DNA of 64,000 bases from positions 826 through 64,825 of the forward strand of contig JAQBRQ010000041.1 of the NCBI GenBank assembly GCA_028286385.1, written 5' to 3'. This DNA comes from Candidatus Saccharimonadota bacterium (lineage in GTDB: Bacteria; Patescibacteriota; Saccharimonadia; Saccharimonadales; UBA4665). The notes beneath the pieces were generated by a model, which saw only the letters and a list, made by a program, of their open reading frames with translations, was not told the DNA's origin and did not search any database. The position numbers were made by a program, and so were the translations under genes. Position 1 is the stretch's first letter, and every line of letters begins with the position of its first letter. This document shows, in pieces, positions 8,692 through 17,436 of the stretch.

Positions 8692-8769
8692 TGGGGCGAA
8701 CTATGGGAATTGAACCCACGACCTCCGGAACCACAACCCGGCGCTCTAACCAACTGAGCTAAGCCCGCC
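8692..8769 (-). tRNA. tRNA-His (anticodon GTG) with an encoded G-1
   Basis: The reverse complement folds: G-1 plus acceptor GCGGGCT/AGTTCGC, D GCTC/GAGC, anticodon stem CCGGG/TCCGG with loop TTGTGGT, and T arm GTGGG-TTCAATT-CCCAT. Discriminator C pairs with G-1. CCA is encoded. Confidence 0.9.
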
Positions 8770-8773
8770 ATAT

Positions 8774-8789
8774 AACAGAGGTGATTATA
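8774..8789 (-). promoter_or_regulatory. Putative promoter -10 plus conserved leader for tRNA-His (minus strand TATAATCACCTCTGTT)
   Basis: TATAAT lies about 14 nt upstream of the tRNA 5' end, with TTGTAA 17 nt further upstream. An identical 16-mer precedes tRNA-Gly, and a near-identical one precedes tRNA-Pro. Confidence 0.55.
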
Positions 8790-8816
8790 GCTTATATGGC
8801 GAGAGATTACAACTAG

Positions 8817-9212: not shown

Positions 9213-9424
9213 GATGGACTCCTTACGGTAATTGGAATTGGTAAGAAGTACTATAACGCCTACGCTTAGTTATTGCTGTAAGCTAGCTTACTTCAACTGT
9301 CGTAAAAGATCTCTTCGATCTTGCGCAACGGTGATGCAATCATAGCGGTCTTCGTATACTTCACGTGGCTTTAAGTTCACTGTCGTATATTCAATAATAC
9401 AACCTGAATTCAAAGAGTATAGTG

Positions 9425-9453
9425 TTGATCGCCACGGTTTTCACTGATATACT
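9425..9453 (+). promoter_or_regulatory. Putative sigma-70-type promoter of the island operon
   Basis: TTGATC, a 17-nt spacer, then TATACT. GGGAGGGG (Shine-Dalgarno) follows, then the ATG at 9472. Confidence 0.45.
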
Positions 9454-9471
9454 GGGAGGGGCATAAGCATT

Positions 9472-11214
9472 ATGAAAAAAAATACACTTACGGTAATCGA
9501 TTTCTTCTCAGGGGCAGGCGGATTTTCCGAAGGTTTTAGACAACAGGGCTTCAAGATTGTTAAGGGTATCGACCGGTGGGAACCAGCGGTTAAGACACAT
9601 AACCTTAATCATGGCTTGGAAGACACCGTCGAGAACGTACTGGACTATGCAGGCTCAAATTCCTCTGACGTTGAGCGCATTGAAACACTACCTGACGTAG
9701 ACGTTATCATTGGCAGCCCCTCCTGCGTTACATTCTCCATGTCCAATAAAGGTGGTAAGGCTGATAAGACTGAGGGTTTGAGACTCATTGAAGCGTACCT
9801 CAGAGTGATAGCCGTAAAAAAGCATAAGCAAGGTAGCCGTCTTAAGGCCTGGCTTATGGAGAATGTTCCCAATAGTGGCAACTATGTTAAGCACGACTAT
9901 ACTTTCAAAGACTTGAATCTTGAGGATTGGGCATCTGCTAATTCACTGGAGGCTGACTCCGTTGCCTTGACTCTTAACGGAACCGTATTAAATGCGAGTG
10001 ATTATGGTGCGCCGCAGAACCGAAGTCGTTTCATATGCGGTGAAACCATATCAGACGGAAAATTCCCTGCACCCAAGCCTACGACTCATATTAAGCCACT
10101 GCTCAAAGACATAAGATTAAAGATGCCTAAGCCGAGCGATGTACGCCCCAAGGGATCATACGAGGACCCTAACTACCCAGGCCTTATTATTGAAGCAAAG
10201 CAGATTAGCGACCACTTCTACGACACTGGGCTATATGTAACTCAATGGGAGCAATCAAAGTACCTTAAGACGATGCATCCTTTTATGGGTAGAATGTCAT
10301 TTCCTGAAGCGGATGAGAACAGCTCGCGGACGGTTACTGCTACACGATCTATAAGTAGCCGCGAGTCTTTGATCTATAAATCAGAATACGATAGAACCGG
10401 GCATGGCGAATACAGGACCCCAACCATACGCGAAGCTGCTTCGCTCATGGGTTACCCGTACACCTATCAGTTTTTCGGATCAGAGGGCGTGAAATGGAAG
10501 CTTATTGGAAATAGCGTTAGCCCTCACCTTAGCTCGGCTTTGGCATCGGCAATGCTTGTAAAGGAAGGCCGTAAACCGGTTGCCGTAAAAAACATACCTT
10601 TCGAAGAACAGAAAGAACTGTACCTCTCAGTTGATAACCTCAACACTTTCTCGCCTATAAAGTTCGACCAGCGAAAACTTAGAAAACCAGGTGCGAAGTT
10701 CAGACGATCAGTATACAAGGGCCAAAATATGACTGTTGACTTGCTGAACTATAATCCGAGCACAAATGATACGGCGGGCATAAAATGGTATGTGGGTACG
10801 TTTTATGGAACGGGCAGCGACCACAAGTATGATGTGCTAAAAAAAGGCCAGTACTCAAAACTTGCAAAGGTGCTTGGTGACAACTTTGATCTCTTTGATG
10901 AGTTTCGTACTGAGTTGGAGAAATTTACGGGCAATACTTCAATGAACGCTCGTACTCTTCAGCAGGCATACGAAACGGACTCAGATTTAGCGGATAAGCA
11001 AAATCCACTGGTTATTATCGAGCGTATCCGGCAGCTTACGAATAAGTACGGCGCTCTACAGCCCGACCTCAGGCTTGAACTAAGCGGGATGCATAAGCAA
11101 AACTTCTTATTTGGGCAACTCCTCTGCTTGTTCTCACTAGGCCATATCGTATACAATAATTTGGTAAGTGAACCAAGAGTCGTAAGTGAAAATTCTTTGG
11201 CTTTTGGAATATAA
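9472..11214 (+). CDS. DNA (cytosine-5)-methyltransferase with a ~215-aa C-terminal extension
   Basis: All the diagnostic C5-MTase motifs are present: I DFFSGAGGFSEGF, IV GSPSCVTFS (catalytic Cys), VI LMENV, VIII QNRSRF, IX REAASLMGYP and X IGNSVSP. Confidence 0.9.
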   Translation: MKKNTLTVIDFFSGAGGFSEGFRQQGFKIVKGIDRWEPAVKTHNLNHGLEDTVENVLDYAGSNSSDVERIETLPDVDVIIGSPSCVTFSMSNKGGKADKTEGLRLIEAYLRVIAVKKHKQGSRLKAWLMENVPNSGNYVKHDYTFKDLNLEDWASANSLEADSVALTLNGTVLNASDYGAPQNRSRFICGETISDGKFPAPKPTTHIKPLLKDIRLKMPKPSDVRPKGSYEDPNYPGLIIEAKQISDHFYDTGLYVTQWEQSKYLKTMHPFMGRMSFPEADENSSRTVTATRSISSRESLIYKSEYDRTGHGEYRTPTIREAASLMGYPYTYQFFGSEGVKWKLIGNSVSPHLSSALASAMLVKEGRKPVAVKNIPFEEQKELYLSVDNLNTFSPIKFDQRKLRKPGAKFRRSVYKGQNMTVDLLNYNPSTNDTAGIKWYVGTFYGTGSDHKYDVLKKGQYSKLAKVLGDNFDLFDEFRTELEKFTGNTSMNARTLQQAYETDSDLADKQNPLVIIERIRQLTNKYGALQPDLRLELSGMHKQNFLFGQLLCLFSLGHIVYNNLVSEPRVVSENSLAFGI

Positions 11215-11257
11215 ACGTTTGAGCAACCGAAACTAAACCCAAGGACTAATCCGCGAG

Positions 11258-12652
11258 ATGAATCAGCATACCAGAACACAGAAGATCTCCGAGATTACCA
11301 GCAGAGAACAAGAAAAGTATGGTCGCCAAGACATTCCTTGGAAAGATAGGCTTGAGCCTATGGACGTATACAAGATCCCTCTCGAGTACCTTGTATATAA
11401 CAAATATAACGGCCGCATCTTAAGCCGCACAAAATCCCTTGAAAAACAGCATCACAAAATTAACGAAGAGACGGAAGACGGAAAAAGATTACTAGAGGAC
11501 CTGCTGTTTGAGTCTAATCAGGGACGCAACAAACAGACACTCGAGAGCCTAAAGAAGATTGGCCAGGAAAAGGTAGGCATCATTACGCGTGACGGCATCA
11601 TAATCGATGGCAACCGACGCGCTATGTTATTAGCCAAGGCTGGAACTCGCTATTTTAAAGCAGTTGTACTCCCGGTAACGCTAGAGGAGAATCCACTAGA
11701 AATTGAGAAACTAGAGACTTCTTATCAAATGGGCGAGGATGAAAAACTCGGCTATAACCCTACCGAAAAATACCTGAAGGCAAAACAGCTCCAAAAACAA
11801 GGTGTACCAATTTCTGATATTGCCCGATGGATGGCGGAGTCAGAGGGGCAGATTAAGGAAAACCTCTACATCATGGAGATTATGGATGACTACTTAGACT
11901 ATCTAGGTATAAATGGTATATACACACAGCTTGATAACCGTGAAGATCAATTCATAACCCTATCAAACCAGCTCAAAAACTTTTATGGCGAAAACAGCGC
12001 CAAGCCCTTTGACGGCTATCGTGATAGCGATGTAGATGATTTGAAGAACGTATCCTTCGACTATATCCGGGTCAAATATGAGGGTAAGGACTTTCGTAAT
12101 ATAGCCTATGGTCTGCGCGAAAATCACTTCTTTGGTAACAAAGTAATATGGGAAGACTTTAGGGACTTTCACTTTAATCACATGAAGTCGATGGAGCTAC
12201 TAGAAGCTAAGATCGATCTAGACTCACAAGACCTTGAGGCTCACCTTAACGCCAGAGACACCACATTCAATAAGTTGACCCAAGACGAAAATGGGAAGAG
12301 CTTCCTCAATGAGAATATGGAAGATCATATTCAAAAGCTGAGGTACAACAAAGCTAAAGATCAGCCCGCAAAATTAGCCAAGGATTCTATAGGCGCACTT
12401 CAGGCAATCGACCCTAAACATAATGCTTCATCGAAGCCCGAAGTCGTAGAGCAGATTCAGAATATTGCCGATTTAGCTTTCAGCATGCTGACTGACAAAT
12501 CACCGAAACGAGTCATGAGTCAAGTTGTTGATCTCTTAAGTGCAATCAATTTGAAGGGTACCACCGAGACAAAGGAAGAACTGCTTGCTGCGGTCAAAGA
12601 GATTGAAAAACAAGCGTATAAGATTGAAAAAGAAATCAAGAGTTCTTTGTAG
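11258..12652 (+). CDS. ParB/sulfiredoxin-fold (ParB N-terminal domain-like) protein with a long helical C-terminal region
   Basis: The N-terminal blocks IPLEYLVYNKYNGRI and GIIIDGNRRAMLLAK resemble the ParB-N/DndB/DUF262-type core (..N.R.., DG..R). Confidence 0.6.
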   Translation: MNQHTRTQKISEITSREQEKYGRQDIPWKDRLEPMDVYKIPLEYLVYNKYNGRILSRTKSLEKQHHKINEETEDGKRLLEDLLFESNQGRNKQTLESLKKIGQEKVGIITRDGIIIDGNRRAMLLAKAGTRYFKAVVLPVTLEENPLEIEKLETSYQMGEDEKLGYNPTEKYLKAKQLQKQGVPISDIARWMAESEGQIKENLYIMEIMDDYLDYLGINGIYTQLDNREDQFITLSNQLKNFYGENSAKPFDGYRDSDVDDLKNVSFDYIRVKYEGKDFRNIAYGLRENHFFGNKVIWEDFRDFHFNHMKSMELLEAKIDLDSQDLEAHLNARDTTFNKLTQDENGKSFLNENMEDHIQKLRYNKAKDQPAKLAKDSIGALQAIDPKHNASSKPEVVEQIQNIADLAFSMLTDKSPKRVMSQVVDLLSAINLKGTTETKEELLAAVKEIEKQAYKIEKEIKSSL

Positions 12653-12661
12653 AAAGGCCTC

Positions 12662-14626
12662 GTGAATATAGATACTGACAATGATAATTTTAGCTATGTA
12701 CTCAGCGGCGACATAGCTAATTTGCTTGCTAATAGGCGGCTTTTATTTTCGCTTAAAAGGCTCGGCTATGAAGAGGATGGAGGTAGGCTTCTTATACCTT
12801 TTCTACCGCAAACCAAAATAAAGACACTCCAAGAGATTCAAGACTTGCTGGCTAAGTTCGGCTATAGCCACCAACTCTCCGAGAAGTCAAAAAAGGACGT
12901 CGAAAGCTTTACCCGTGAAAAGGATAACTTCGAAATATTTTCCGCGAAAGCTAAGAATATTCGCAATAATAATTTCCAAGACAACCCAGAGTTAGTAGCC
13001 GAGTTCGACCATTTCCAACAAGTGCTTGGGAAAAAGCTGGTCAGGAAACTTTACCCACTACAGTTACTGTCTGCATACCACATGGCCTTTGCGCAGAACG
13101 CATGTAATTTTGCCGTCCCCGGTGCTGGCAAGACCTCAATTGTCTACGGAGCATACGCCTACCTGAAGAACTTGCCAGCTGACGATCCAAAGCACGTAGA
13201 TAACCTCCTGGTAATCGGACCTCTATCTTCGTTTGCCCCGTGGGAAAAAGAATATGAAAAATGTTTTGGCGTACCAGCTAACGTGCAGCGTCTGTCCGGT
13301 GACTCAAAAATAACTCACGACCAAAAGGCACAACATCTATACTCGGGCGACCCTTCGGAGGTAACCCTAATTTTTACAGGCGGTGTTAGCGGCCTGCAAG
13401 AAGATGTAATCGACTTTCTCAAGCGAAACAAAACTATGGTTGTAGTCGATGAAGCTCACCGTATAAAAAATCCGGATGGCCTGTGGGGCAAGAGCAGCGT
13501 TGAAATCGCAAAGGAAGCAAAAGCCCGGGTGATACTGACAGGAACGCCTGCTCCTAACGGCTATGAAGACCTGTTCAATCTCTACCAGTTTCTTTATCCC
13601 TACAAGTACAAGGATATTTTGAAGTTTCACTATGAAAATTTGGTAGACATGTCGAAAATCGGTCTGCACGATACTGACCGTGTCCAGTCTTTTATCAACA
13701 ACATTGCACCGTACTTCATACGCATAAAGAAAAAAGACCTTAAGTTGCCCCCCACTAAGGATCATATTGTAGTTTGCGAAATGGATCAGGCACAAAGAGA
13801 GATATACGATTTCATCGAGACGAAGTACATCAAAAACTTTGAGCACGATAGCTACGCGACCGTGAAGAACGTGCTTAACAAGGCTAGGTTAATTAGGCTG
13901 AGGCAAGCCAGTTCGAACCCCGCACTTCTAGAGAAGCCTATACGAGAAACACTGACGGATGAAGACTACGACTCACCAGCACTTAATAATATCAAGTTGC
14001 CTGACGAATTCCAGAATGACTCAGAAATACTTGCGAAGATTAAGAACTACTCACTCAATCACGTTCCTCAAAAATTCCTAGCCACCCAAAAAGTACTACG
14101 TGATCACATAATCGATGATGGACAGAAAGCCATCATTTGGACTATATTCATCCAGAACGCCAAAGAACTCCAAGAGTACCTGCAAGAGAAAGGTATCAAA
14201 TCTAAGCTGCTAATTGGCGAGGTGGATCAGTCGGATCGTGAAGTTATCATTGATAAATTCAACGACCCTGAAAATACTGAGTTCCAAGTGGTCATCGCTA
14301 ACCCATTTTCTGTGGCAGAGTCCATATCGCTTCACAACGGCTGCCATAACGCTATTTACATGGAGCGAGATTACAATTGTGCTAACTTCCTACAATCAAA
14401 AGATCGTATACACAGAGTGGGATTATCCCCTTCCCAGGAGACTAATTACTACTATATCTTGGCGAGTGATTCAATCGACGGGGTCATAAACGATTCCTTG
14501 GATAAAAAAGTATTAAGGATGGAAAAAATAATTGATGAGGATATCCCTCTGTTTACCAGGCTCGAGGATGGAGATGAAACCGATTTAATAAAAGCATTAC
14601 TTGAAGATTATGCTCGACGAACTTAG
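12662..14626 (+). CDS. SNF2-family (SF2) DEAH-box helicase/translocase
   Basis: Motifs: I AVPGAGKTS, II VVDEAHRIKN, III ILTGTPAPNGYEDLFNLYQFL, and VI QSKDRIHRVGL. GTG start 9 nt after the upstream stop. Confidence 0.85.
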   Translation: MNIDTDNDNFSYVLSGDIANLLANRRLLFSLKRLGYEEDGGRLLIPFLPQTKIKTLQEIQDLLAKFGYSHQLSEKSKKDVESFTREKDNFEIFSAKAKNIRNNNFQDNPELVAEFDHFQQVLGKKLVRKLYPLQLLSAYHMAFAQNACNFAVPGAGKTSIVYGAYAYLKNLPADDPKHVDNLLVIGPLSSFAPWEKEYEKCFGVPANVQRLSGDSKITHDQKAQHLYSGDPSEVTLIFTGGVSGLQEDVIDFLKRNKTMVVVDEAHRIKNPDGLWGKSSVEIAKEAKARVILTGTPAPNGYEDLFNLYQFLYPYKYKDILKFHYENLVDMSKIGLHDTDRVQSFINNIAPYFIRIKKKDLKLPPTKDHIVVCEMDQAQREIYDFIETKYIKNFEHDSYATVKNVLNKARLIRLRQASSNPALLEKPIRETLTDEDYDSPALNNIKLPDEFQNDSEILAKIKNYSLNHVPQKFLATQKVLRDHIIDDGQKAIIWTIFIQNAKELQEYLQEKGIKSKLLIGEVDQSDREVIIDKFNDPENTEFQVVIANPFSVAESISLHNGCHNAIYMERDYNCANFLQSKDRIHRVGLSPSQETNYYYILASDSIDGVINDSLDKKVLRMEKIIDEDIPLFTRLEDGDETDLIKALLEDYARRT

Positions 14627-15590
14627 GGCATACGAGAATCTCGGTACGCCTAAGTATTTTTGGGAGCTACTAACTCAGGTTAACGGCTGCGAGGATAATT
14701 GGAGTGTCGATGACACGAACCAGTATTTCTTTAATAGGATAATCGACGGTGTGAGGATATTTGATGGTTGCATTCAGTTCGCTGAAGCTATAGGTGTAAT
14801 AAAAGTGGACAGTGACGGTTGCATCACTCTCGATGCAGAATTCGACCCGTTACCGCGAAGCGAGAATCATCTTCATAACAAGATGGTAGAAAAGCTATTC
14901 ATGGTCCTTAAAGACGACGATATACTTCAGGGCATATTCTCGTCCGAGAATGTGAGCTATGATATTATCTACCGATCAATACAAATAGATAACGCTGCGT
15001 TCAGTCTCAAATATTCGAACTTCAAAGACTTGTTGGTGAGTTTCGGATTCCTAACGCCCCATCCGGATGTGAATATACCAAAGTACGTTGTGAACGGGAG
15101 GTACAGGCGGTTGTTTGACCAGATTTTGTTGCCTGAAATAAAGCGACGCAAAATAGGGATCAATGAGCTTAGAAAGTCGGTCGAGCAAAAACAAGTATAT
15201 GGTGATGAGGCGGAGAAGTTCGTGCTTGGATACGAGAAAATCCGCCTGGCGGAACATCCTAACTTAGACAAAATTGAGATTATATCCGAATATGATGTTT
15301 CGGCTGGCTATGATTTGGTTTCTTTCTGCGAAAACGACTCAACCGAGATAGATAGATTCGTCGAAGTGAAATCATTTTCAGGTTCGCCTTACTTCTATTG
15401 GTCTAGAAACGAAGTAGATACAGCCAGAATAAGGCGGGATACTTATTATTTGTATTTGGTAGACAGAGACAAATTGAATGACGAAGACTACATTCCCCTA
15501 ATCATCCAGGACCCCTATGTTAATATTCTGGATAAACCTGAAGAGTGGAATAAGCGAGTTGAGAGTTACTTCATTAGCCATCCAGTGTAA
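14601..15590 (+). CDS. DUF3883-type (PD-(D/E)xK restriction-endonuclease-fold) domain protein
   Basis: The C-terminal block GDEAEKFVLGYEKIRL...SAGYDLVSF...DRFVEVKS...FYWSRNEVDTA...YYLYLV matches the DUF3883 pattern. The start is TTG 14601 or ATG 14610; either overlaps the SNF2 stop at 14626. Confidence 0.6.
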   Translation: MKIMLDELRAYENLGTPKYFWELLTQVNGCEDNWSVDDTNQYFFNRIIDGVRIFDGCIQFAEAIGVIKVDSDGCITLDAEFDPLPRSENHLHNKMVEKLFMVLKDDDILQGIFSSENVSYDIIYRSIQIDNAAFSLKYSNFKDLLVSFGFLTPHPDVNIPKYVVNGRYRRLFDQILLPEIKRRKIGINELRKSVEQKQVYGDEAEKFVLGYEKIRLAEHPNLDKIEIISEYDVSAGYDLVSFCENDSTEIDRFVEVKSFSGSPYFYWSRNEVDTARIRRDTYYLYLVDRDKLNDEDYIPLIIQDPYVNILDKPEEWNKRVESYFISHPV

Positions 15591-15703
15591 ATTGATTTGA
15601 TACCAATCAAAAATAACGTTAAATCAATTCGTGAACAATTGGATATGGTCAGAACGGCCCCGAGAAGATACAGAATGACACAGAAATGGCTATAAAATCA
15701 TCT

Positions 15704-15780
15704 TGGTGCCCCGGGCTGGACTCGAACCAGCGACCTTAGGCTTAGAAGTCCTCTGCTCTATCCATCTGAGCTACCAGGGC
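15704..15780 (-). tRNA. tRNA-Arg (anticodon TCT)
   Basis: Acceptor GCCCTGG/CCGGGGC, D GCTC/GAGC, loop CTTCTAA, T arm GCTGG-TTCGAGT-CCAGC, encoded CCA. The anticodon stem has only 3 Watson-Crick pairs (GAGGA/GCCTA). Confidence 0.75.
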
Positions 15781-15803
15781 ATGGCACCAATATTGTTCAA
15801 TGA

Positions 15804-15878
15804 TGGTGCGGGTGCGGAGAGTCGAACTCCGATCACCAGTTTGGAAAACTGGGATAATAACCGCTATACGACACCCGC
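15804..15878 (-). tRNA. tRNA-Gly (anticodon TCC)
   Basis: Acceptor GCGGGTG/CACCCGC, anticodon stem CCAGT/ACTGG with loop TTTCCAA, T arm CGGAG-TTCGACT-CTCCG, 4-nt variable loop, encoded CCA. Confidence 0.9.
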
Positions 15879-15894
15879 AACAGAGGTGATTATA
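15879..15894 (-). promoter_or_regulatory. Putative promoter -10 plus conserved leader for the tRNA-Gly/tRNA-Arg pair
   Basis: The minus strand reads TATAATCACCTCTGTT immediately upstream of the tRNA-Gly 5' end. This is identical to the 16-mer at 8774-8789. Confidence 0.55.
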
Positions 15895-15915
15895 TCATAA
15901 ATAAGTTGATATGGA

Positions 15916-17436
15916 TTACATTTCGTGCAGGACGGTGATGCGCGCACCGAGGCTGTTGAGGCGTTCGGCGAGATCTTCGTAGCCACGGTTGATGGTGTAG
16001 ACATTGCGTAGCATGCTAGTGCCAGGGGCGGCGAGCATACCAATAAGTAGCAGGCTGGCTGGTCGCAGCGCTGGTGGGCAGACAACATCGCTGACGGTAA
16101 AACGGGTAGGACCGGTAACATAGACGCGGTGCGGATCGGCTAATTCGACTTGGCCACCGATTTTGGTCAGCTCGGTGTAGTAAATTGCGCGGTTCTCGTA
16201 CATCCAGTCGTGGATAAGGGTTCGGCCCTTGGTGACTGCGGCAATCGGCACAAAGTAGGGCAGATTGTCGGCATTGAGGCCAGGGAAGGGCAGCGAGTGA
16301 ATCTTATCGGCCAGGGCGCGGAGCTTGCCGTCGTGCTTGTGGATTGTCAGGTCTACCAGATCAGTTTTACCGTTTTCGGCCTTGTAACGAGGTGTTTGGT
16401 CGACGCGCAGACCCATTTTTTCGAGCTTCAAAAGTTCGACGGTCATGAATTCAATCGGCACGCGCTTAATAGTGACCTTGGAATTAGTTGTGACGGCAGC
16501 CGAGGTAAAGAACATCGCTTCGATTGGGTCTTCACTCGGCGCGTAGGTAACGTTTTTTTTGATGTGCGGTACGCCAGTGACCGTCATGCGGGTGGTGCCA
16601 ACGCCGTCAACTTTAACGCCCAACTTTTGCAGGAAGAAACAGACTTCTTGGATTGCATAGTTGGCGCTGGCGAATTCAATAATAGTCTCTTCGGTAGTGC
16701 GGGCCGCGGCGAACAAAGCATTCTCGGTGACGGTATCCCCTGGTTCGTAGAGCGTGACTCGTCCCGGCGCTTTTTTGTCGACAACAATCTGGTAATGGCC
16801 TGATTTAGCGACAATACTAACACCAAAATTTTCGAGTGCATACAGGTGCGGTTCGACCGTTCGGCTACCCAATTTGCAGCCCCCCGCGTACGGGATTTTA
16901 AACTCGGCTTCGTCGTGCATGATCGAGCCGATCATCATAAGTACGCTGCGAGTTTTGCGAGCTGCTTGAGCGTTCAGGCGGTCTAGCTTGAGTTTTGCTG
17001 GACGGCGGATTTCGATGTCGTTGCCGGGCAGCCATTTAACGCTGACGCCCATGCTCTCCAGCACCTCAATGATACGGTAGACCTCTTCGATGCGCGGGAA
17101 GGCCTTAAAGGTTGTGATGCCGTAGTTCAGCAAGCTGGCGCAGAGTAGGCCAACGGCAGCATTCTTGCTGGTTTTAAGGGTGATTTCACCCTTTAGTTCG
17201 TGGCCGCCCTCGATGCGTAGGTTTGTGGCGCCGCCGCTGAGTGAAATAAGCTGTTTGTTAAGGACGTCACTGATGCGCCCGAGGGTTTCCAGGCTGAGGT
17301 TCTGGCGACCGTGTTCCATGCGGTTAACGGCCGATTGGCTGGTGCCAAGCTTTTTAGCAAATTCCGACTGAGTCAGTCCGCGATCTTGTCGTATTTGAGC
17401 AATCAAGCTGCCAATTTTTTCGTTTGTGGAAATCAT
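15916..17436 (-). CDS. murA: UDP-N-acetylglucosamine 1-carboxyvinyltransferase (MurA) with an N-terminal XRE-type helix-turn-helix domain
   Basis: Residues ~8-62 (IAQIRQDRGLTQSEFAKKLGTSQSAVNRMEHGRQNLSLETL) form a classic HTH_3 domain. The rest is MurA-like: LRIEGGHELKGEITLKTSKNAAVGLL, the active-site region YAGGCKLGSRTVEPH, and a C-terminal NRGYEDLAERLNSLGA. Confidence 0.85.
   Translation of the reverse strand: MISTNEKIGSLIAQIRQDRGLTQSEFAKKLGTSQSAVNRMEHGRQNLSLETLGRISDVLNKQLISLSGGATNLRIEGGHELKGEITLKTSKNAAVGLLCASLLNYGITTFKAFPRIEEVYRIIEVLESMGVSVKWLPGNDIEIRRPAKLKLDRLNAQAARKTRSVLMMIGSIMHDEAEFKIPYAGGCKLGSRTVEPHLYALENFGVSIVAKSGHYQIVVDKKAPGRVTLYEPGDTVTENALFAAARTTEETIIEFASANYAIQEVCFFLQKLGVKVDGVGTTRMTVTGVPHIKKNVTYAPSEDPIEAMFFTSAAVTTNSKVTIKRVPIEFMTVELLKLEKMGLRVDQTPRYKAENGKTDLVDLTIHKHDGKLRALADKIHSLPFPGLNADNLPYFVPIAAVTKGRTLIHDWMYENRAIYYTELTKIGGQVELADPHRVYVTGPTRFTVSDVVCPPALRPASLLLIGMLAAPGTSMLRNVYTINRGYEDLAERLNSLGARITVLHEM

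Follow-up and report, generated by a model that had tools for sequence, protein, structure and literature searches.

A cluster of four co-oriented genes in a 64,000-nucleotide stretch of DNA from a Candidatus Saccharimonadota bacterium (assembly GCA_028286385.1, contig JAQBRQ010000041.1, positions 826 to 64,825; the whole stretch is hereafter called the window) raises the question of whether its products act together in immunity and, if so, whether they represent a system that has not been described before. A preliminary description, made from the sequence alone, had read the cluster as a candidate undescribed restriction-like defence system, composed of a C5 DNA methyltransferase, a ParB-fold protein, an SNF2 helicase and a DUF3883 nuclease. 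We conclude, with a probability of roughly 0.7, that this cassette is a self-contained, horizontally mobile immune system, which uses 5-methylcytosine (m5C) as the mark of self and relies on a ParB-like protein and an SNF2 motor of the AbiR family. We read it as a defence system because of its character as a unit, the intact chemistry of its products, the hallmarks of immunity that it displays, its link with AbiR and the tie with methylation that runs through the whole family.

The cassette as a mobile unit

The four open reading frames (ORFs) lie on the forward strand and span positions 9472-15590. The first gene, g1 (9472-11214, 580 aa), encodes a C5 DNA cytosine methyltransferase, g2 (11258-12652, 464 aa) a ParB/Srx-fold protein, g3 (12662-14626, 654 aa, GTG start) an SNF2-family translocase of double-stranded DNA (dsDNA) and g4 (14601-15590, 329 aa, TTG start) the putative effector. 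Proteins JWO35_779 and JWO35_781 have the same sequences as the products of g2 and g4, respectively; in the public annotation g4 starts at an ATG at 14610 and encodes 326 aa. The tight packing that had first drawn attention to the cluster was reproduced exactly by the ORFs, with gaps of 43 nt between g1 and g2 and of 9 nt between g2 and g3, followed by a g3/g4 overlap of 26 nt, if counted from the TTG, or 17 nt from the annotated ATG.

Relatives of g2 were found 149 times in 185,579 species genomes (one genome per species), and the best 80 of these 149 loci were analysed. The four genes, which were proposed to belong together, indeed co-occur across phyla: by strict ORF clustering they stand in the same order and on the same strand in 59 of 78 loci, most exceptions being contig ends, and tblastn with the four window proteins gave the same methylase-parB-snf2-nov_c arrangement in the great majority of the best 80 loci. 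The end of the SNF2 gene is overlapped by the effector gene in 68 of 70 loci. The hosts represent more than 12 phyla and include Saccharibacteria and other members of the Candidate Phyla Radiation (CPR), Bacteroidota, Acidobacteriota, Firmicutes, Chloroflexi, Alpha-, Beta-, Gamma- and Epsilon-proteobacteria, Spirochaetota, Verrucomicrobia, Melainabacteria and Caldisericota. A profile of g2, searched against 1.84 billion entries, retrieved 1,570 representatives (50% clustering) with E≤1e-3, of which 889 reached E≤1e-10; the family is rare and at the same time very widely spread. In two loci (L060 and L072) the matches to the ParB-like protein and/or the SNF2 protein are incomplete though the contigs continue (only g3 residues 1-358 are covered in L060), and these copies may be decaying or pseudogenised.

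The closest relative of the window cassette is located in another Saccharibacteria metagenome-assembled genome (L001, 8173-14314). It matches window positions 9425-15571 (+) in one blastn alignment of 6153 nt with 77.6% identity, while the flanks of the two copies have nothing in common. Other related copies reside on plasmids and at prophage ends. Based on the conserved gene order, the shared block in unrelated flanks and the SNF2/effector overlap, we recognize the promoter region and the four genes as a discrete, horizontally mobile unit, a colinear block of 6.15 kb.

The single good promoter and ribosome-binding site attributed to the cluster were upheld in part. A strong Shine-Dalgarno sequence, GGGAGGGG (9454-9461, +), precedes the g1 ATG by 10 nt, and upstream of it a promoter-like site (9425-9453, +) consists of TTGATC and TATACT separated by 17 nt, with a TG extension (TG-n-TATACT); this site is a consensus match only. 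As the region holds no excess of promoter-like sites (11 against 12.3 expected), it is weak evidence by itself; yet the DNA homology with the L001 cassette begins exactly at 9425, the predicted -35 element, which supports the call.

Mobility of this kind would also suit a selfish module which stabilises a mobile element, or which shields incoming DNA from host restriction in a DarB-like manner. Methylase, SWI2/SNF2 and ParB domains recur together in the polyvalent proteins that phages and conjugative elements encode (PMC5512222), and this domain combination speaks for such counter-defence, as do the few relatives on viral contigs or at a prophage end. However, viral contigs yielded only 24 matches in 2.9 million, mostly near contig ends, and the gene content around the window copy is of the housekeeping kind and includes neither an integrase or relaxase gene nor any phage gene. 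Moreover, polyvalent systems use adenine methylases and ParB domains of the DdrB type (PMC5512222), and the nuclease or TIR effector and the Vsr neighbours presented below fit immunity. Altogether, a counter-defence role seems improbable.

Predicted activities of the four proteins

All four protein assignments of the preliminary description proved correct. In the g1 product, the Pfam DNA_methylase domain (PF00145) covers residues 7-361 (E 5e-35) and the TIGR00675 (dcm) model scores above its cut-off. Motifs I (FSGAGG), IV (GSPxC, with an invariant Cys), VI (ENV), VIII (QxRxR), IX and X are kept in 68 homologues, as expected of a complete C5 methyltransferase. The closest solved relatives by sequence are the catalytic domains of DNMT1 (E 1e-12). 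The remaining residues 362-580 (about 220 aa, nt 10555-11211) have no Pfam match; this C-terminal extension is specific to the family and is present, though weakly conserved, across the homologues. Relaxed-threshold Pfam searches with the extension, the N-terminus of g3, the C-terminal half of g2 and the N-terminal half of g4 returned noise only. We found that in 23 of 80 loci the methylase gene is adjoined by a gene for the Vsr mismatch endonuclease, the usual companion of active m5C methylases.

In one metagenomic protein (P0361, 749 aa), the methylase portion, which is of the cassette type, is reduced to its C-terminal half (motifs IX-X and the extension) and is joined in frame with a full ParB-like protein. 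It may be a natural methylase-ParB-like fusion, and as such a hint of physical association, or the result of read-through or of a lost stop codon.

The g2 product, either as a single sequence or as a profile, gave no useful match in Pfam, NCBIfam, PADLOC, PHROGs or among the PDB sequences, and its fold was settled only by structure prediction and Foldseek. The AlphaFold2 model (pLDDT 87) retrieved from the PDB 33 top matches that are all ParB, Noc, KorB or Spo0J proteins (probability 1.0, E 2e-5 to 1e-2), in alignments of about 250 columns which span the ParB N-domain and the helix-turn-helix (HTH) domain (approximately residues 20-220 of g2). Invariant residues include N48/N51-G-R53, D117-G-N-R-R121 and Q157-M-G-x-D-E-K-L-x-Y166, and N167 occurs in at least 90% of the sequences. 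By comparison with established ParB motifs, not by a computed alignment, these would correspond to ParB boxes I-III, including G-x-R-R. More distant relatives of g2 carry the RefSeq label 'ParB N-terminal domain-containing protein'.

With the partition-type ParB, Noc and KorB proteins, which are CTP-dependent DNA clamps, g2 thus has the N-terminal ParB/Srx domain and the HTH in common. It differs from them in the lack of a ParA partner and of a partition context, in an all-helical C-terminal half of about 240 aa that is different from theirs, and in its constant pairing with an SNF2 gene; its sequence similarity to solved ParBs is undetectable. The likeness to DndB, DpdB and DUF262 proteins, put forward initially, turned out to be looser than claimed, the model being closer to partition-type ParB with its N-domain and HTH.

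As for g3, Pfam recognises SNF2-rel_dom (residues 153-420) and Helicase_C (479-587) and no nuclease domain. Walker A (GAGKT), the DEAH box and motif VI are kept in 76 homologues; the N-terminal region of some 110-150 aa is uncharacterised. The best PDB relatives are Chd1, ISWI and Snf2, and the chromatin-remodeller matches include LSH and DDM1.

The g4 product carries a NOV_C/DUF3883 domain (PF13020) at residues 205-290 (E 4e-11). Residues E205, E212, D238 and E255-x-K257 (E255-V-K257 in g4 itself) are invariant in 37 homologues and make up the canonical PD-(D/E)xK set. The nuclease domain is preceded by residues 1-180, for which we keep the label 'tandem winged-helix-like', and by a long helix. 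In five loci (L063, L066, L067, L068 and L071) a TIR domain takes the place of NOV_C at the C-terminus of a fourth gene product of the same size, and the N-domain of g4 is homologous to the N-terminal 180 residues of these TIR variants (hhalign Prob 97.8%, E 1e-12). An adaptor with swappable nuclease and TIR effectors is typical of defence systems. Since the adaptor takes either a nuclease or a TIR domain, g4 is better understood as a licensed effector than as a free-standing sequence-specific enzyme. The restriction-like defence function proposed at the outset is thereby well supported by the Vsr neighbours, the nuclease/TIR swap and horizontal mobility together.

We also considered whether the g4 N-domain could be a cut-down AbiRa, the sigma-like protein of AbiR; it is unrelated to such proteins (hhalign Prob 0.6%) and the idea was rejected. 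On a Candidatus Pseudothioglobus chromosome (L062, 14349-15377) the NOV_C effector is followed by a second NOV_C protein fused to DUF3427, a domain known from SauUSI, an enzyme that depends on modified cytosine; the AbiR-type locus L086 is likewise bordered by a DUF3427 gene.

Taken separately, the methylase and the motor could be thought of as housekeeping proteins, with the SNF2 motor aiding C5 methylation and the ParB-like protein and nuclease engaged in DNA repair. Eukaryotic precedents for SNF2-aided C5 methylation are Dnmt5 and the DDM1/LSH remodellers with DNMT1; the DNMT1, LSH and DDM1 matches given above are in line with this view, and the Vsr neighbours provide a link to m5C repair. 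However, these PDB similarities are generic to both superfamilies, the distribution is patchy and shaped by horizontal transfer (149 relatives in all the species genomes searched), some loci have TIR in the place of the nuclease, and the cassette has homology to a phage-defence system which becomes toxic when its methylase is missing. Of the alternatives that we weighed, an epigenetic or repair role is the most improbable.

Kinship with AbiR

That phage-defence system is AbiR of the Lactococcus lactis plasmid pKR223, which consists of a sigma-70-like AbiRa, a ParB-like AbiRb and AbiRc, a protein with an N-terminal restriction-endonuclease-like domain and SNF2 (PMC13064643). AbiR is an experimentally validated phage defence which interferes with phage DNA replication; it requires the methylase of the neighbouring LlaKR2I restriction-modification (R-M) system, a C5 enzyme, and is toxic otherwise (PMC13064643). 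This account follows the summary of the primary work (Twomey 2000; Yang 2006) in a 2026 review of lactococcal abortive infection (Abi) systems, according to which the AbiR domains were "not previously associated with phage defence" (PMC13064643). In turn, a 2025 SAR11 preprint mentions AbiRb/AbiRc-like operons devoid of AbiRa and of the AbiRc terminal domain, which were not counted as a system there.

Loci with this architecture were found. Enterococcus plasmids carry triads of genes whose products are sigma-like (860-918 aa, with Sigma70_r4), ParB-like (404 aa) and SNF2 proteins. The same triad occurs in Clostridium gasigenes (L086), with an N-terminal PLD domain in the SNF2 protein, beside genes for a MutH/Sau3AI-family endonuclease and a C5 methylase. 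On a Priestia plasmid (L085), genes for a ParB-like protein and a PLD-bearing SNF2 are flanked by dcm and MutH/Sau3AI genes, with no sigma-like gene annotated. The long SNF2 proteins encoded in L085 (E 2.5e-8) and L086 (E 5.7e-7) both contain PLDc_2; the PLD-bearing N-terminus of the L086 protein found nothing at the sequence level among PDB sequences (the match reported in the review is 7CLG).

The similarity to the window cassette concerns both core proteins. Compared with the g2 profile, the ParB-like protein of an Enterococcus casseliflavus plasmid triad (L084) gave an hhalign Prob of 99.2% (E 6e-20), with the motifs IIDGNRR and QxGExxKxxYNP in common, and the top PDB matches of the g2 model include 5K5D, the entry used by the review for AbiRii. 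The helicase of this triad shares 33% identity with g3 over 503 aligned positions (BLASTP, E 3e-81) and is far closer to it than any other SNF2 protein. As AbiRc follows AbiRb directly, so g3 starts 9 nt past g2. A C5 methylase at the locus is a further likeness: the function of AbiR depends on one, and every relative locus with room for such a gene has one.

The differences are equally distinct. No tblastn match to the sigma-like proteins of L084 and L086 occurs in the whole 64-kb window, g3 has no PLDc_2, and tblastn with the N-terminal region of the L086 SNF2 protein finds nothing in the window. Instead, the cassette has its nuclease in a protein of its own, where a winged-helix adaptor precedes NOV_C (TIR in certain loci). 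Its methylase, the product of the first gene of the operon, differs from that of AbiR in being a dedicated enzyme that bears a C-terminal extension, and no separate restriction endonuclease is present. Finally, the cassette is encountered mainly in CPR and Bacteroidota rather than on Firmicutes plasmids. The name 'AbiR' is attached to none of 3,325 relatives, and pKR223 is absent from the plasmid collection searched. From these sequence relationships, the cassette is most likely an unnamed variant of the AbiR family and not a wholly new kind of system. Its new features are the dedicated extended methylase, the lack of AbiRa and of the PLD domain, and the separate, adaptor-borne NOV_C or TIR effector.

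Two further observations concern the sigma-like proteins. Residues 636-825 of the one encoded in L084 (4389-6998) match the MutH/Sau3AI-family gene of L085 (Priestia megaterium, NZ_CP092389.1, 98356-98940) with 27% identity (tblastn, E 3e-8); judging from the coordinates, it is the C-terminal half of the endonuclease that is matched. BLASTP of the AbiRa-like proteins against the Sau3AI-like enzyme of L008 found nothing. If AbiRa carries a Sau3AI-type GATC-binding domain, the dependence of AbiR on the GATC-specific LlaKR2I methylase would be explained. The triad is found on many E. faecalis plasmids, and among Enterococcus plasmid records 52 match the ParB-like protein and 49 the sigma-like protein.

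The constant core and its changing partners

The pair formed by the ParB-like and SNF2 proteins is the constant core of the family, and we found it in five contexts: within window-type cassettes; directly after Type III mod-res genes on Lactobacillales plasmids; in AbiR-type triads; in CPR genomes followed by genes for a Sau3AI-like endonuclease and a short C5 methylase (L008, L009); and, at the end of a Streptococcus prophage record (L081), after a BanI/DpnII-like endonuclease gene, together with NOV_C and a C5 methylase.

Only six of the best 80 loci (L005, L008, L009, L018, L045 and L062) lack the extended cassette methylase. All six encode a MutH/Sau3AI-family endonuclease and an orthologous short C5 methylase, which is 47-62% identical among these loci and to the methylase beside the Clostridium triad (L086). 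In the cassette-type loci among the same 80, no MutH-like gene was detected. This dichotomy links the whole family with m5C methylation, and it suggests that the extended methylase takes over the role which the separate endonuclease/methylase pair has elsewhere, most simply sequence recognition.

The same contexts give rise to the main rival of the defence-unit reading, namely that two systems lie side by side. A Type II R-M pair, made of the C5 methylase and a NOV_C endonuclease, would then be interrupted by an independent ParB-like/SNF2 dyad, or the dyad would act as a booster of restriction, for instance by processing breaks. The dyad indeed accompanies diverse complete R-M systems, with Type III mod-res, Sau3AI-like and, in L081, BanI/DpnII-like enzymes, and in Enterococcus it is placed between Type I R-M and McrBC and has no methylase next to it. 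However, in the cassette the dyad lies between the methylase and nuclease genes and all four travel across phyla as a single block; the SNF2 and nuclease genes overlap in nearly all loci, as noted; the adaptor of the nuclease is common to the TIR effector in the same position, which would be unexpected for a free-standing Type II enzyme; and the methylase extension, besides being family-specific, is found only in the cassette context. We regard the two-systems explanation as unlikely, although it is the strongest of the three alternatives. All three account less well than a single immune cassette for the gene order, the overlap, the common adaptor and the distribution.

The Enterococcus arrangement is itself of note: on plasmids or contigs L087-L089, the sigma-like/ParB-like/SNF2 triad between Type I R-M and McrBC genes forms a compact defence island.

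Comparison with other defence systems

The preliminary description had found no named system with this exact set of four genes. This held for the four-gene combination, which appears to be unnamed and is missed by PADLOC v2; yet the ParB-like/SNF2 core belongs to the AbiR family, and Hma had not been considered. Literature searches combining DUF3883, SNF2, ParB and methyltransferase yielded no paper naming the cassette, and it is not described in the papers on BREX diversity, the Dnd reappraisal, polyvalent proteins or S. suis.

Hma is the nearest system by domain-based literature search. It comprises HmaA, an SNF2-NOV_C fusion, the methyltransferase HmaB and the DUF499 ATPase HmaC; HmaA suffices for protection against T4 and has a C-terminal region that nicks or cleaves plasmid DNA (PMC11232893). 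As in the cassette, an SNF2 motor, a DUF3883/NOV_C nuclease and a DNA methyltransferase are combined. In Hma, however, the motor and the nuclease form one polypeptide, whereas in the cassette they are encoded by two overlapping ORFs that differ in frame, with an additional N-terminal part of 200 aa in g4. HmaB is of the DUF1156 type while g1 is a C5 methylase (PF00145), and Hma has no ParB-like protein. Domain scans of the four cassette proteins gave no match to DUF1156 or DUF499, and no HmaA model stands among the PADLOC matches listed for g3 and g4.

Type III R-M systems (Mod and Res) can be likened to the cassette as well, with an ATP-dependent SF2 motor, a PD-(D/E)xK nuclease and a methylase that possibly gives sequence recognition. 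Yet in Res the motor and nuclease are fused and the motor is not of the SNF2 clade, while g3 has no nuclease domain; Mod is an N6/N4 methylase and g1 a C5 enzyme; Type III systems have no ParB-like subunit; and the cassette effector is exchangeable for TIR. The ATP-dependent Type II systems of the CglI/NgoAVII type consist of a C5 methylase, a PLD/B3 endonuclease and an SF2 ATPase. As generally described, they resemble the cassette in the C5 methylase and in the division of restriction between a nuclease subunit and an SF2 NTPase subunit, and differ from it in the PLD/B3-like nuclease, in an ATPase outside the SNF2 clade and in the lack of a ParB-like subunit.

The exclusion of BREX, DISARM, Dpd, Druantia and Hachiman in the preliminary description was confirmed and extends to Zorya, as PADLOC v2 gave partial, domain-level matches only. 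These connect g3 with the SNF2 cores of ZorD, DpdE, DrmD and BrxH, g1 with generic C5 methylase models (DrmMII/DruM) and g4 with the NOV_C regions of PD-T4-1, Tiamat and PDC-S36; g2 has none. No PADLOC match among the four proteins concerns the signature genes DrmA and DrmB (DUF1998), DruE, DpdA (TGT), ZorAB or PglZ/BrxC, and their NCBIfam equivalog scores are far below the cut-offs.

Proposed mode of action

The following scheme would account for the cassette as an immune system. The g1 enzyme, whose motifs are intact, is predicted to methylate a fixed short motif in host DNA. Judging from fold, motifs and strict gene pairing, g2, with its nucleotide pocket of the partition-ParB type and its HTH, and g3 could form a surveillance machine driven by nucleoside triphosphates (NTPs), which would load on dsDNA and translocate along it. 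Upon encountering unmarked DNA, the machine would license g4, which would dock by way of its winged-helix N-domain and whose synthesis would be coupled to that of g3 by the gene overlap. The effector would then cut DNA by means of its PD-(D/E)xK domain, and the TIR domain of the sister cassettes presumably depletes NAD+, thus aborting infection. More speculatively, the extension of g1 might tether the methylase to the complex, so that the methylase would also provide sequence recognition, as Mod does in Type III systems; we raise this since only loci without the extended methylase carry a separate Sau3AI-like endonuclease.

Several findings weigh against this interpretation. Motif IV of the g1 family reads P-x-C in the 68 homologues in place of the usual P-C. 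The GxRR motif of g2 is DGNRR and not GERR, which makes nucleotide preference and hydrolysis uncertain. Whole-chain Foldseek with the AlphaFold2 model of g4 (pLDDT 88) gave weak, mixed matches (SPARDA nuclease, tRNA-splicing endonuclease, FokI and tandem winged-helix proteins; best E 0.05), which were not used further; because of their weakness, the nuclease assignment is founded on the Pfam domain and the invariant residues. The position of the dyad beside complete R-M systems could mean that it is an accessory to restriction instead of a sensor. Lastly, the sigma-like triads were assigned to AbiR by their architecture and the description given in the review, not by alignment to the pKR223 sequences.

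A wider generalisation, which we offer tentatively and hold for rather doubtful, is that the ParB-like/SNF2 pair serves as a general, hitherto unrecognised sensing platform. An NTP-gated ParB clamp would load an SNF2 motor that scans for missing m5C and triggers the attached effector, whether this is NOV_C, a fused PLD, a TIR NADase or a restriction enzyme acting as partner. On this view the cassette, AbiR and the dyads linked to Type III and Sau3AI-like systems would be subtypes of a single modular immune family that reads methylation; in the subtype of the window, the extended methylase would be a shared recognition subunit.

Genomic surroundings of the window copy

Beyond the cassette, the 64-kb window holds housekeeping genes, as the preliminary description had stated; for this reason the acquired element is to be seen as a lone mobile insert, not as the proposed defence island in the sense of several systems together. 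The claim that it is AT-rich was correct, as the GC content is 0.41-0.46 over 9-16 kb and about 0.50 in the flanks. The bracketing by tRNA genes is real for this copy, with tRNA-His on one side (8692-8768, -) and tRNA-Arg(tct) and tRNA-Gly(tcc) on the other (15704-15878, -), all outside the cassette; however, 11 of 12 other loci checked showed no tRNA adjacency.

A search for att-like direct repeats at the island ends gave a single repeat (8774-8797 and 15879-15902), which we do not read as an integration scar. It is a direct repeat of 24 nt with 88% identity, situated immediately upstream of tRNA-His and of tRNA-Gly/Arg, both read from the reverse strand, and it probably marks a shared tRNA promoter. 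The gene adjoining the cassette (15916-17436, -) encodes a 506-aa protein in which an Xre-type HTH (HTH_3, E 3e-15) at the N-terminus is fused with a complete enzyme of the MurA/EPSP-synthase fold, an unusual joining of a transcription-factor domain with a cell-wall enzyme.

Implications

Since 2000, AbiR has been known as a phenotype more than as a mechanism. The cassette shows that the AbiR core is not merely lactococcal: it amounts to about 900-1,600 sequence clusters in many phyla, including ultra-small CPR bacteria, in constant company with DNA methylation and with interchangeable effectors. Part of this diversity escapes current tools. PADLOC v2 misses the cassette. DefenseFinder includes AbiR, with AbiRc as a helicase (PMC12278908); to judge from the SAR11 preprint, DefenseFinder-style rules that demand AbiRa would probably miss the cassette too.

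The compact four-gene version, with its own methylase and neither a sigma-like protein nor an endonuclease, would be much easier to reconstitute than the system of pKR223. It makes testable the role of a ParB fold in immunity, the reading of m5C state, and the way in which such a mark drives cleavage or a TIR output. If the sensing platform outlined above is true, it would be the first partition-type ParB clamp in immunity and the first R-M-like self/non-self mark coupled to an abortive (TIR) output. For specialists, this family would be notable for how widely the AbiR core is spread, for the use of a partition-type ParB fold in an immune context and for the swap to TIR in an R-M-like system.

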